Of a DNA stretch of 64,000 nucleotides, positions 15,441 through 41,118 are shown in pieces; the first letter of the stretch is position 1; each line of letters opens with the position of its first letter. Made by a program: the position numbers and the translations under genes. This DNA is from Patescibacteria group bacterium (GTDB lineage Bacteria; Patescibacteriota; UBA1384; XYA2-FULL-43-10; 1-14-0-10-43-13). Location of the stretch: contig JBAZBD010000001.1 in NCBI GenBank assembly GCA_041671645.1, positions 671,234 through 735,233 on the forward strand. Reading direction: 5' to 3'. The notes beneath the pieces were generated by a model. That model saw nothing but the letters and a program-made list of their open reading frames with translations. It was not told the DNA's origin and ran no database searches.

Positions 15441-15486
15441 TATCAAGCTCAAAGCCAATCAGATAGCAGCCCCTCACCCTTGATGC

Positions 15487-15743
15487 TATAATCGAGATAT
15501 GCATTATCTCTATTTATTGCAAAGTGAGACAGACAAGTCTTTATACATTGGCCAGACATCGGATTTAAAAGTTCGATTATGCGATCATAACTCGGGTAAA
15601 AATCAATCAACAAGATTGAAGAAACCTTGGAAATTGATTTATTACGAAGCATATCTCGATCCAAGCCTGGCAATCAAACGTGAACGGCAATTGAAAAGAT
15701 TCGCCAAATCGTATGCAATGTTGAAGAAAAGAATAGGCTTGTA
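15487..15743 (+). mobile_element. insertion in the RNase P RNA P3 loop that carries a GIY-YIG ORF (homing-endonuclease-like)
   Basis: A perfect 17-bp inverted repeat (the P3 stem) immediately flanks an 81-codon GIY-YIG ORF, and the stop codon abuts the 3' stem arm. No group-I-intron core is evident. Confidence 0.4.
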
Positions 15744-15744
15744 G
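15499..15744 (+). CDS. GIY-YIG nuclease-domain protein (YhbQ/UPF0213-like), paralog 1
   Basis: YLYLLQSETDKSLYIGQTSDLKVRLCDHNSGK ... PWKL matches the GIY-YIG core. Confidence 0.7.
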   Translation: MHYLYLLQSETDKSLYIGQTSDLKVRLCDHNSGKNQSTRLKKPWKLIYYEAYLDPSLAIKRERQLKRFAKSYAMLKKRIGL

Positions 15745-16205
15745 CATCAAGGGTGAGGGGAGGAAAGTCCAGGCACCATAGAGCAGGACGCTCGTTATAA
15801 ATGAGCAGGCAGTAATGTCTGAGAACAGCGCAACAGAAAATAAACCGCCCCTCACCCTTTGTGGACAAAAAATCCGAGATTCGGATTTTGACGCAAGTCA
15901 GTCCATGAAGGGTGAGGGGTAAGGGTGAAATCGTGCTCCGATGTTAAATTCGGAGTCTCGCAATCGTTGGATTGTTGAGAGGGTAAGAGCCCACGCGTTC
16001 GTATGGCGACATACGTCTGTGGCAAGCCTCGTTTGGTGCAAGTGGGGTGGACCGTTTGAATTAATGTCTGCTCGACAGATTCAAAAGGCCCTCACGCTTA
16101 GATAGATTGCTGTCCAAAACAGAACCTGGCTTATGCTTGACTTTGAGCAAAACAAGACTATAATTCTTATATATCACCCTGATTGAAGTAATTTGTGGCC
16201 CATAA

Positions 16206-16262
16206 CGTTCCGAGTAATTGGAACGGGGTAACACCTCAACTTCCGTTGGGGTGTTTTATTTT
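16206..16262 (+). terminator. hairpin plus T-run downstream of RNase P RNA
   Basis: aacacc tcaacttccgttgg ggtgtt ttatttt. Confidence 0.35.
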
Positions 16263-16896: not shown

Positions 16897-16997
16897 ATCA
16901 ATTTATCCCCCACTGCTCTCACGCAGTGGTTTTTATTTTCACGAATTAATCTTATTGAAATAACGCTCATTTTAGGTTAAAATTAAGCGAAATGTGA

Positions 16998-17007
16998 TCG
17001 GGGATCG
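16998..17007 (+). repeat. direct repeat copy of the tRNA-Gln 5' end (tcggggatcg)
   Basis: Identical 10-mer at 16998-17007 and 17331-17340 brackets the GIY-YIG ORF. It is followed by two hairpins (gctgtgtc-atac-gacacagc; ccctgtc-gaat-gacaggg) and no matching 3' acceptor strand. Confidence 0.6.
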
Positions 17008-17058
17008 CTGTGTCATACGACACAGCCCTGTCGAATGACAGGGTCTAATTCATTTTTC

Positions 17059-17325
17059 ATGTATTATCTTTATATATTACATTTGAGAAAAGTTAATAAG
17101 CTTTATACTGGTTCAACCCAAGATCTGAAGAATAGGCTTTCTGAGCATCTTGCGAATAAAGTGTTATCGACAAAGAATCGTGATCCCGAAATCATACACT
17201 TTGAGACATACAAACTCAAAAGTGATGCGTTGAGGAGAGAAAAATTCCTTAAAACCACCGAGGGCAAAAGATTGCTTCGACAACAATTAAGAGATATTTT
17301 GATTTCGATAGATTATATTGATTGA
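17059..17325 (+). CDS. GIY-YIG nuclease-domain protein, paralog 2
   Basis: MYYLYILHLRKVNKLYTGSTQDLKNRLSEH; ends 6 nt before tRNA-Gln. Confidence 0.65.
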   Translation: MYYLYILHLRKVNKLYTGSTQDLKNRLSEHLANKVLSTKNRDPEIIHFETYKLKSDALRREKFLKTTEGKRLLRQQLRDILISIDYID

Positions 17326-17330
17326 TATAT

Positions 17331-17404
17331 TCGGGGATCGTCTAATGGCAGGACAGCGGCCTTTGAAGCCGTGAATCATGGTTCGAATCCATGTCCCCGA
17401 GCCA
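17331..17404 (+). tRNA. tRNA-Gln (anticodon UUG)
   Basis: Manual cloverleaf: acceptor TCGGGGA/TCCCCGA, D stem gtct/ggac, anticodon stem gcggc/gccgt, loop cTTTGAa giving anticodon TTG, T arm CATGG-TTCGAAT-CCATG, discriminator G, encoded CCA. Confidence 0.8.
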
Positions 17405-17543
17405 AAATAAAAGCGCCAAGAAATTGGTGTTTTTATTTTGGACATGGATTAGAACGGGAAGGGGTCGGGAAACGGAAGTTTCCCGTGTAGGAAAAAACTA
17501 AAAACCGTGGGTTTTTAGAAGCGAAGGATGAGCGCTCGAGATC

Positions 17544-17559
17544 CCATGTCCCCGAGCCA
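17544..17559 (+). repeat. duplicated tRNA-Gln 3' end (ccatgtccccgagcca), att-like
   Basis: 16-nt exact copy of 17389-17404 lying 155 bp downstream. Each copy is followed by a hairpin plus T-run (17410-17440 and 17562-17600). Confidence 0.6.
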
Positions 17560-17663
17560 AGAAAAACGCTCAACTATAAAGTTGGGCTTTTTTCTTGGTT
17601 AAAAGCAACAAGATTGACAAATATTGACTTCCAGCCTAATATGAGCTCAAACCAAGCACGGCG

Positions 17664-39786: not shown

Positions 39787-41118
39787 ATGAAACTAGATAT
39801 CTTCAAAAATGGATCCCCAATACTTCGCACACCCACAGAAACGGTGACTGATTTTGACATGGAACTCCAGAAAACTATAGACGATATGATCGAGACGATG
39901 AGGGGCGCCAACGGAATCGGCTTGGCCGCACCACAGATCGGTAGCTCGAAGAAATTATTGGTCTGCGAATTTGCAGGAGATGAAGAGAGCAAGATTCCGG
40001 CTGTCCCGCTAACTGTCCTTTGCAACCCCGAAATTGTTCAATCGTCAGACGAACTAAAAAATATGGTCGAGGGCTGCCTTTCCTTCCCTGGTATGGAGTT
40101 GATCGTGAAAAGACCGAAAAAGGTGAAGGTGAAGGGCTTTGATAGATATGGCGAACCGATCGAGATCGAAGCTGACAATTTGTATGCTCGAGTGCTACAG
40201 CACGAGATCGATCATCTAAATTGCACCCTTCTGGTCGACCATCTAGAGGAAGTTGACGTTATTTTTATCGGCACTGGCACGCTCGGCGTCCCTGCGCTCA
40301 ATGCCCTAGCAACAGACCCGCAATATCGCATCAAACTTGTCATCACCGGTGAAAATCTTGCCGTCTCAAGAACTCATGCCGACAACATCAACCCAATCGA
40401 GGAAACTGCCAAGAAATACAAGATCCCAATTCTCAAGACCAAGAATATCAAGGATCCTGAAACAATTGAGAAAATCAAAGCGACTAAGCCAAAAATTGGC
40501 ATTATGGCTGATTTTGGTCAGATCGTCAGCGAGGAGATTCTCAACATTCCAGAGTTTGGCATCATCAATATTCATCCTTCACTACTTCCTAAATACCGTG
40601 GACCCTCTCCAATCCAGCAACCGATTCTGGACGGCGTCAAAACTACTGGCGTAAGTCTGATACTAACGGCGAAGAAAATGGATGCTGGCGACCTTGTTTC
40701 TCAAACTATTGTGAAACTTCAAGGTTCGGAAACTTCTACTATTCTGAAGAACTTCCTGGCCGAAGTCGCTGCAACGCAACTTCTGAATTCCCTGCCCTAC
40801 TATATCGCTGGCGACTTGAAGCCTGAGCCACAGGGAGAGAAGCGGATCAGCTATACCCGCCTTTTCACGAAGGAGGATGGCCTTGTCACCGAAACAACTC
40901 CAGCAGTAGAGGTTGAGAGGAAAATTCGCGCTTTTGACGCTTGGCCCAAGGTCTACACTATGGTCAAGGGCAAGAGAGTCCAGCTTCTCTCTTCACATTT
41001 CGATAAAGAAAATAATTTCTTCATCGACCGAGTCAAACCAGAGGGCAAAAGTGAGATGAGTTATGAAGACTTTGTCCGAGGTTATCATACCGAAATCAAA
41101 TTCTCTGAATCGCGTTGA
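39787..41118 (+). CDS. def-fmt: peptide deformylase - methionyl-tRNA formyltransferase fusion protein
   Basis: Residues 1-155 carry the Def motifs GIGLAAPQIG, EGCLSFPG and QHEIDHLNC. Residues 157-443 are Fmt (VIFIGTGTLGVPALNAL; NIHPSLLPKYRGPSPIQ). Single uninterrupted ORF. Confidence 0.8.
   Translation: MKLDIFKNGSPILRTPTETVTDFDMELQKTIDDMIETMRGANGIGLAAPQIGSSKKLLVCEFAGDEESKIPAVPLTVLCNPEIVQSSDELKNMVEGCLSFPGMELIVKRPKKVKVKGFDRYGEPIEIEADNLYARVLQHEIDHLNCTLLVDHLEEVDVIFIGTGTLGVPALNALATDPQYRIKLVITGENLAVSRTHADNINPIEETAKKYKIPILKTKNIKDPETIEKIKATKPKIGIMADFGQIVSEEILNIPEFGIINIHPSLLPKYRGPSPIQQPILDGVKTTGVSLILTAKKMDAGDLVSQTIVKLQGSETSTILKNFLAEVAATQLLNSLPYYIAGDLKPEPQGEKRISYTRLFTKEDGLVTETTPAVEVERKIRAFDAWPKVYTMVKGKRVQLLSSHFDKENNFFIDRVKPEGKSEMSYEDFVRGYHTEIKFSESR

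Follow-up and report, generated by a model that had tools for sequence, protein, structure and literature searches.

GIY-YIG nuclease cassettes marked by a hairpin pair inside tRNA genes of Patescibacteria and other bacteria

Contig JBAZBD010000001.1 of a Patescibacteria group bacterium (assembly GCA_041671645.1) carries, within positions 671,234 to 735,233 of its forward strand, a tRNA-Gln gene that has been split and rebuilt. This 64,000-nt stretch is referred to here as the window; coordinates below are positions within it. A cassette of about 330 bp, containing a gene for a very small GIY-YIG nuclease, sits between nucleotides 10 and 11 of the ancestral tRNA-Gln gene, and a 10-mer upstream of the nuclease gene is the displaced original 5' end of that tRNA-Gln(UUG) gene. 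It belongs, as a locus, to a large family located on at least 12 tRNA species, in which 60 of 68 open reading frames (ORFs) adjoin a tRNA gene on the same strand, against about 2% expected from the tRNA density of the same loci. The layout is repeated at over sixty tRNA genes in ultrasmall (CPR) and some other bacteria, and points to an undescribed family of selfish elements inside tRNA genes.

A split and rebuilt tRNA-Gln gene

All parts of the locus lie on the forward strand. A promoter-like sequence (TTGAAA and TAAAAT, 17 nt apart; 16955 to 16983) with 10 of 12 consensus matches ends 14 nt 5' of the tRNA copy, and is presumed to be the native tRNA-Gln promoter, which would now drive the cassette as well. 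The copy begins with a stub of tRNA-Gln nucleotides 1-10 (16998 to 17007), recognised from the sequence match and its recurrence in other tRNA-Gln loci. Two hairpins follow, hp1 (ctgtgtc-atac-gacacag, 17008 to 17025) and hp2 (ccctgtc-gaat-gacaggg, 17026 to 17043), each with a perfect 7-bp stem and with the loops ATAC and GAAT, respectively. They correspond to the family motifs RTC-ATNC-GAY and RTC-GNAT-GAY, the second mirroring the first. Past the hairpins the stub is continued by tctaat (17044 to 17049), a direct match to nucleotides 11-16, so that the upstream copy comprises 16 nt of tRNA-Gln cut by a 36-nt hairpin insert. The nuclease ORF, with 88 codons and TGA (17059 to 17325), is supported by Pfam, alignment and a structure model and keeps all residues that are invariant in the family. 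Intact tRNA-Gln(UUG) was called by ARAGORN and Rfam (62 bits) at 17331 to 17404, directly 3' of the ORF. The cassette therefore runs in the order hairpin pair, six tRNA bases, short AT-rich spacer, GIY-YIG gene and fresh copy of tRNA nucleotides 1-10, and because this fresh copy is joined to the rest of the gene an intact tRNA-Gln stands 5 nt past the stop codon.

A sequence-only reading of this DNA had already described a GIY-YIG gene before the tRNA, which is correct, but had counted 89 codons and a 6-nt gap. Every element it named lies at the position given or no more than two bases from it; the tctaat continuation and the two partial tRNA copies 3' of tRNA-Gln (see element X below) were not among them. 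Its two tight hairpins are likewise present, although the loop it took for a T-loop-like TCGAAT is a GAAT tetraloop closed by GTC/GAC. The 10-bp direct repeat it reported is exact, and a search of the whole window found TCGGGGATCG at 16998 to 17007 and 17331 to 17340 only, the 10-mer being unique apart from these two copies. Taken alone, the 10-mer has an alignment score of 20 where the shuffled maximum is 22, and is thus inside the chance range. The repeat counts as real because the stub starts exactly at tRNA nucleotide 1 and recurs in relatives, where the copy varies in step with the local tRNA acceptor sequence. Folded as RNA, hp1-hp2 has a predicted energy of -27 kcal/mol (z = -3.5), and in an in silico fold of the full transcript the stub pairs with the 3' acceptor strand of the tRNA. 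A group I intron with a GIY-YIG endonuclease was considered and rejected, as Rfam gave no match of the cassette to an intron family at E up to 10 and the tRNA is present as an uninterrupted copy.

Relatives were gathered with a protein-based scan of one genome per GTDB species, giving 66 loci. The sample was seeded with the peptide FLKTTEGK and covers this subfamily only; all comparison loci (designated L) are metagenome-assembled genomes (MAGs) or metagenome contigs. The family was found in MAGs of Patescibacteria (the Candidate Phyla Radiation, CPR), Kiritimatiellia, Lentisphaerota, Victivallales, Planctomycetota and Cloacimonadota, and its host tRNAs are those for Ser, Arg, Gln, Lys, Asn, Thr, Ile, Cys, Tyr, Met, Pro and Leu. 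On the far side of the ORF lies a partial copy of the adjoining tRNA, interrupted by the hairpin pair. In one layout the 5' stub and hairpins come first, then the ORF, then the intact tRNA; in 31 of 34 evaluable loci, tRNA nucleotides 1 to k, hp1-hp2, and nucleotides k+1 to about k+5 stand in this order before the ATG. Nearly all relatives continue with 4-7 nt of the local tRNA after the hairpins. The break point k takes values of 7-26, 34-37, or 55-58 and long-arm equivalents, with insertion usually in the D-arm region, anticodon loop or T-loop, and the junction almost always falls directly after CG. Examples are TTCG/AATCC in the T-loop, NCG anticodons in tRNA-Arg, CGA in Ser, CGG in Pro, and GATCG/TCTAAT in Gln. 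About 12 loci have the mirror layout, in which the intact tRNA is followed 1-30 nt on by the ORF start, and then by the hairpin pair and a 3' fragment of the tRNA. In these loci the end of the ORF reads through GGTTCG-hp1-hp2, producing tails like GSPRHPTGRPVE and placing the stop codon in the loop of hp2. The sister proteins of L014 and L025 occupy the same tRNA-Arg site in opposite layouts; the neighbour-joining tree, built on 82 residues, is poorly resolved.

Close relatives, L003, L005 and L006 (70-80% identity), contain stub, hp1, hp2, a few tRNA bases, ATG, ORF and tRNA-Gln in that order, and each stub is the acceptor 5' strand of its own tRNA (tccggga, tccgaga or tcgggga). With L019 as the fifth locus, the stub equals the local acceptor strand in five of five Gln loci, which together have three different acceptor sequences. 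More distant relatives at tRNA-Arg copy nucleotides 1-36, as far as the anticodon, and resume with nucleotides 37-41 after the hairpins. Across the family the duplicated piece measures 7-72 nt and always spans the tRNA end to the insertion site; since the copy runs to the anticodon loop or T-loop elsewhere, its length is set by the site of insertion. The stub is 100% to about 75% identical to the intact tRNA, and in most loci the two do not differ at all. In L040 they differ by compensated changes in the anticodon stem and variable arm, in L028 by a compensated anticodon-stem pair, and in L010 they are likewise different alleles. On this sequence evidence the copies in L040 and L028 are two functional alleles and not a decayed local duplicate, which speaks for imported sequence. 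Remnants of earlier ORFs are found 5' of the stub in L008 and L009, indicating repeated invasion or tandem duplication, while L068 contains tandem units 3' of its tRNA. The earlier suggestion is supported in so far as the repeat results from a small GIY-YIG element seated in a tRNA gene. The alternative offered with it, a tRNA pseudogene fragment, is also right, as the upstream copy is one, and the two alternatives amount to the same thing.

A metagenome scan with the tRNA-Gln body (nucleotides 8-65) was used to look at presence and absence and returned 19 loci, about 12 of them distinct. ORF, stub and hairpins occur there only in L086, which is identical to L019; in the others a promoter-like region leads straight to the tRNA. 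Counted over genomes with an identical tRNA-Gln body, the cassette is patchy (2 of about 12 distinct loci). Loci with RNase P RNA upstream of tRNA-Gln served as the syntenic comparison. In the window this RNase P RNA holds another GIY-YIG gene (GIY-YIG #1) in its P3 loop, and the cassette gene (GIY-YIG #2) with stub and hairpins is present at tRNA-Gln. L097 and L098 have GIY-YIG #1 and a clean tRNA-Gln lacking GIY-YIG #2, L019 and L086 have GIY-YIG #2 with stub and hairpins and lack GIY-YIG #1, and L080, L081 and L084 lack both. The cassette, stub and hairpin pair are thus gained or lost as a unit, independently of GIY-YIG #1, and are polymorphic for presence at one defined site among related genomes. 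Gene-bearing relatives have the repeat and gene-less ones lack it, and in the window the 10-mer is confined to its two copies, so the refuting outcomes named by the sequence-only reading were not seen. A -10-like hexamer lies 13 nt before TCCGAGATCG in the empty locus L080, where the distance is to tRNA nucleotide 1, and 10 nt before it in the filled locus L019, where the distance is to the stub, as are the 14 nt of the window. This matching spacing means that the stub holds the native 5' position of the tRNA gene. Orthology through the 189-aa upstream neighbour was dropped, its only homologue among 5.8 billion sequences being itself, and the tRNA body and RNase P synteny were used.

The hairpin pair and the nuclease

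In 23 aligned hairpin pairs 99.1% of cells are paired. Changes on both sides were seen for 10 of the 14 base pairs (45 cells), and none of 500 shuffles matched this pairing and covariation. Judged from the alignment, the hairpin pair is a selected structure. The apical GTC-ATNC-GAC and GTC-GNAT-GAC are conserved and the stems otherwise vary freely while pairing. As hp2 mirrors hp1, the motif is two-fold symmetric about a central CG, and its orientation is for that reason uninformative; most relatives have CG flanking it on both sides. A covariance model gave the pair 59.8 bits at its single site in the window, the next match having 9.6; the model was home-made with rough E-values and included the window sequence in its training set. 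Run on 126 kb of other loci (n = 17), it detected the pair only in L086, the sole ORF-bearing locus among them. Rfam had no family over the stub and hairpins, or over the neighbouring element X described below, at E up to 10. The pair is as such a strongly covarying 40-nt DNA/RNA motif absent from Rfam.

Two further ideas about the hairpins were rejected. Kissing loops between hp1 and hp2 would require complementary loops, and the variable loop bases are Watson-Crick complementary in just 5 of 23 pairs. The sequence-only reading had proposed a tRNA-like minihelix with a T-loop mimic; hp2, with its 7-bp stem and GAAT tetraloop, does not have T-arm geometry, which is a 5-bp stem and a 7-nt T-loop closed by G53-C61. 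The variable base of the hp2 loop also falls at the position of the near-invariant A58 of tRNA, unlike in a T-loop.

Hairpins of this kind were also found without an ORF. L068 (2470-2770) has a tandem array of tRNA-Pro 3' fragments interrupted by the pair, and in L043 (4520-4640) an intact tRNA-Ser(UGA) is followed by a tRNA-Ser 3' fragment that has the pair in its T-loop. A pair in L007 (3978-4019) is located in plain intergenic spacer. L016 (1809-1826) contains a single 18-nt hairpin of the type, CCCCGTCGAATGACGGGG, in frame in a gatA-type amidase-like gene, and from its sequence this may be an in-frame six-codon insertion.

The 88-aa window protein matches Pfam PF01541 (GIY-YIG) with E = 6.7e-13 and 49 bits against a cut-off of 22.6, and has no second Pfam domain. 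At E ≤ 1e-3 there are 243 relatives; those that carry a name all belong to CPR and share 57-80% identity with the window protein. When 38 relatives were aligned, Y5, Y16, G18, R26, H30 and E49 proved invariant, as did the basic C-terminal stretch RREKFLKTTEGKRLLRQQ; the catalytic Tyr, Tyr, Arg, His and Glu are thereby kept in all aligned relatives. The closest solved structures by profile comparison with the PDB are the UPF0213 proteins BH0048 (1zg2, 9.4e-11) and EF2693 (1ywl, 1.6e-09). A structure model with a predicted local distance difference test (pLDDT) of 94.8 is confident and shows a three-stranded sheet with flanking helices, in the order strand, strand, helix, strand, helices of the GIY-YIG fold. 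Foldseek searches with this model placed BH0048 (1zg2) first and the Slx1 nuclease domain after it, with a weaker match to I-TevI and matches to UvrC N-terminal domains as well. A separate DNA-binding domain is absent from the protein, whose only addition is a conserved pair of basic C-terminal helices. From sequence and model together, the protein is probably an active stand-alone nuclease of the Slx1/UPF0213 type. It has what characterises UPF0213/COG2827, namely a single domain, a length of about 80-110 aa and profile similarity to BH0048 and EF2693. A phage origin was considered and rejected, neither a relative of the protein nor the hairpin pair having been found in the IMG/VR viral contigs.

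How the cassette may spread

The explanation we favour, and hold to be reasonably probable, is a selfish, promoter-less, homing-like cassette that encodes a UPF0213/Slx1-type nuclease, rebuilds the tRNA it splits and is probably expressed from the tRNA promoter. From the position of that promoter, and because no good internal promoter was found in the window cassette, we infer that the tRNA promoter transcribes the cassette; normal tRNA processing would then separate mRNA from tRNA. Spread would be homing-like, with a break in or at a tRNA gene being repaired from a cassette-bearing copy. The tRNA pieces on both sides would act as homology arms, the element supplying its own spare part. By analogy with Slx1-type enzymes, which recognise branched DNA, the hairpin pair would serve the nuclease as its cis site, recognised in hairpin or cruciform form. 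It may instead, or in addition, be a plug that destroys the target in the stub.

Several observations weigh against this explanation. The intact tRNA retains the putative target, for instance the T-loop TTCGAA, which is common to most tRNA genes, and a simple sequence-specific homing nuclease would consequently cut its own host and many tRNA genes. The 88-aa protein has no DNA-binding domain of its own, and the left arm of the window cassette, with 10+6 bp, is too short for ordinary homologous recombination. Because a deletion between the direct repeats restores a perfect tRNA gene, presence and absence do not separate gain from loss, and no filled and empty pair within one population was found. 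A family-wide promoter test was weak (6 of 25 loci vs 6% of controls). Mismatches in the hairpins comprise 10 of the G.T type vs 4 of the A.C type, a slight G.T excess that does not discriminate between the strands, or between folding as RNA and as DNA. On co-conversion of flanking target sequence from a donor the observations are mixed, the stub and the tRNA being separate functional alleles in L040 and L028 and identical in most loci.

The sequence-only reading had seen the repeat as a target-site duplication, made by a transposon-like element through a 10-bp staggered cut at the tRNA start. An exact 10-bp direct repeat does bracket the element, and the CG on both sides of the hairpins in most relatives would fit a 2-nt staggered cut for the hairpins themselves. 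However, a fixed cut does not give repeats that vary from 7 to 72 nt and always reach from the tRNA end to the insertion site, nor an upstream copy that is interrupted by hairpins and extends 6 nt past them, and the copies are different alleles in L040, L028 and L010. Terminal inverted repeats and a transposase are absent, the hairpins mark one junction only and the sole gene is GIY-YIG, so we regard such a duplication as very unlikely. A chance repeat beside an unrelated small gene is extremely unlikely. While a 10-nt match over 500 nt does not by itself exceed what shuffled sequence gives, the order of stub, hairpins, ORF and tRNA recurs in dozens of loci with the stub tracking each local tRNA, and hairpins, ORF and stub are present or absent together. 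We also think it unlikely that the arrangement serves the host, with stub and hairpins forming an RNA leader or trailer that would control how the ORF-tRNA transcript is expressed, processed or stabilised, for instance through competition for the 3' acceptor strand of the tRNA, and the nuclease being a domesticated factor tied to tRNA genes. The strong stem covariation, the agreement of stub and local acceptor strand in all five Gln loci, the pairing of the stub with the 3' acceptor strand in the transcript fold and the slight excess of G.T over A.C mismatches would suit a regulatory RNA. Against it stand the position of the hairpins, which precede the ORF in one layout and in the other close it, with the reading frame running through them, the patchiness of the cassette among loci with an identical tRNA-Gln body, the ORF-less hairpin fragments and tandem remnants, and the two-fold symmetry of the motif, which is as expected of a DNA site.

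A site-specific recombinase acting in trans could also be imagined, for which the hairpins would be the recombination site, the tRNA copy an att-type repeat and the GIY-YIG gene cargo or an accessory. Direct repeats that regenerate a tRNA are typical of integrase-driven elements, the hairpin motif is symmetric, and the ORF-less element X resembles the classical 3'-side version, its repeat reaching from the T-loop to beyond the terminator. Yet none of the ORFs close to the cassette matched an integrase, whether in the window or in loci with Pfam-called genes, and the GIY-YIG gene is the one constant partner of the hairpins, whose stems vary freely while pairing, unlike a core site read by a protein. 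This makes a recombinase quite unlikely. We see only a slim chance, finally, for nucleic-acid-guided homing, in which the hairpins would bind the GIY-YIG nuclease while the flanking tRNA copy pairs with the cognate gene and positions the cut. Hairpins and flanking tRNA bases would then form a guide plus scaffold, as transcript RNA or single-stranded DNA. The copy has 10+6 nt in the window and as much as 72 nt in other loci, and the cut would fall at the precise point where the hairpins break it. If true, guidance would account for the constant position of the hairpins at the break in a target copy, for the agreement of the stub with the local tRNA, and for the dozen different targets of an enzyme without a DNA-binding domain.

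If the favoured explanation of a selfish homing-like cassette is correct, elements of about 0.3 kb, apparently undescribed, are widespread in tRNA genes of CPR and several other phyla, and avoid evident host cost by carrying the spare piece of the gene they split. They would for the first time place the UPF0213/COG2827 mini-nucleases, bacterial relatives of Slx1 without an established function, in a biological context. Many of the tRNA pseudogene fragments and unusual C-terminal tails annotated in CPR would be explained as well, and the combination of a compact nuclease with its cis site is a possible tool.

Neighbouring insertions and known systems

A second, non-coding structured element, X, directly follows tRNA-Gln on the forward strand (17405 to 17559, with a second terminator to 17598). 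It contains a terminator hairpin that overlaps the 3' end of the tRNA (17402-17441), followed by the T-loop/T-stem of the tRNA in inverted copy (17440-17455). Next come a core of about 90 nt, whose two hairpins differ by compensatory changes among relatives, the tRNA 3' end repeated directly (17544-17559) and the second terminator (17557-17598); both tRNA copies exceed the shuffled null. Element X is also found 3' of tRNA-Gln in L019/L086, L095, L096 and L097, with or without the GIY-YIG cassette, and X-like elements occur 3' of Arg, Met, Lys, Ser and Leu tRNAs. The 3' fragment in X was considered as the other half of the split tRNA and rejected, given that X and the fragment occur without a cassette in L095, L096 and L097 and that the middle of the tRNA is missing. 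ORF-less tRNA-Gln stubs of another kind are located about 110 nt upstream of the tRNA-Gln genes of L079/L083, L085, L095 and L096. These contain nucleotides 1-18, an unrelated hairpin of 30-45 nt at the D-loop position, and nucleotides 19-25; L079 and L085 have 3' pseudo-copies with a T-loop insert in addition. On sequence grounds, tRNA-Gln of this clade is a hotspot for several kinds of insertion that form duplications.

GIY-YIG #1 (ORF 15499-15744) lies in the P3 loop of RNase P RNA (region 15445-16149), enclosed by an extended P3 stem of 19 bp that pairs 15471-15489 with 15743-15761. The RNA starts near 15445 and not at 15716, as Rfam aligned it. L019 and L080 have a short P3 hairpin without an ORF, L097 and L098 have the ORF at the same place in P3, and in L099 a weak RNase P match begins at the end of the ORF. 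Neither gene duplication nor the hairpin pair accompanies GIY-YIG #1, and the P3-loop insertion is a different invasion strategy from that of the tRNA cassette. The earlier supposition that GIY-YIG mini-genes target structured-RNA genes is upheld by this insertion together with the tRNA-adjoining ORFs, and loop insertion and partial duplication would represent two harmless ways into essential RNA genes. L097 and L080 share with the window a conserved stem-loop (gtggccc...ggggtaacacc...ggggtgtttt) at about 16195-16260, just 3' of the RNase P RNA; it is probably an RNase P terminator or processing signal. The start of a mechanically derived 233-aa ORF overlaps it, the called gene having 189 aa. 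Elsewhere in the window, 39787-41118 encodes a 443-aa def-fmt fusion of peptide deformylase with both methionyl-tRNA formyltransferase domains.

Among known systems, T4-like phages have free-standing GIY-YIG homing endonucleases, notably SegB of the T4 tRNA gene cluster (PMC2330249). Like SegB, the cassette is an intron-less GIY-YIG gene among tRNA genes that is inherited with flanking tRNA sequence (PMC2330249), and its CG-flanked junctions fit the 2-nt 3' overhangs of Seg enzymes. Seg proteins, however, are two to three times larger and have a DNA-binding domain, and their phage-borne genes lie between genes, without a partial gene duplication or hairpin pair. The extra DNA-binding domain typical of free-standing homing endonucleases such as I-TevI and Seg is missing from the 88-aa protein. 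In sequence, fold and single-domain size the best matches are UPF0213/COG2827 (BH0048, EF2693) and Slx1. Slx1 is structure-specific, acting on flaps, junctions and stem-loops, and has Slx4 as its partner in eukaryotic repair; such specificity fits the conserved hairpin pair as a cis site. To our knowledge, and in the literature searched, UPF0213 proteins have not been linked to a tRNA-gene context, a hairpin partner or mobility.

Genomic islands and prophages at tRNA genes use tyrosine integrases, replace the 3' part of the gene, are kilobases long and leave an att duplication. The cassette resembles them in splitting a tRNA gene and restoring it from its own copy, in its truncated direct repeat, and in favouring the anticodon loop and T-loop. 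Unlike them it is about 0.3 kb in size, replaces the 5' or the 3' part, has its junction marked by the hairpin pair and contains no integrase; the tRNA-regenerating repeat of integrase-type elements is present, whereas the single ORF is GIY-YIG and not a recombinase. IS200/IS605 elements with their PATE derivatives, and REP/BIME sequences with RAYT, depend on HUH tyrosine transposases and have hairpins at both element ends. Short conserved hairpins, a very small nuclease gene, ORF-less copies and site-specific insertion are shared with these groups, but the enzyme here is GIY-YIG (hydrolytic) and two adjacent hairpins stand at one junction.

Insertion sequences in CPR rRNA genes also carry homing endonucleases, mostly LAGLIDADG, and are removed from or tolerated in the RNA (PMC11270868). 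They share with the cassette the host group and the combination of an endonuclease gene with insertion into structured-RNA genes, but differ in being located in rRNA genes, tRNA genes not being covered in that study. Full-text literature searches and Rfam gave no description of GIY-YIG/UPF0213 genes embedded in tRNA genes with hairpins. The cassette lacks a defining trait of each of these systems, be it a DNA-binding domain, fixed duplication, integrase, HUH transposase or ribozyme, and by analogy it would work most like a free-standing homing endonuclease gene such as SegB.

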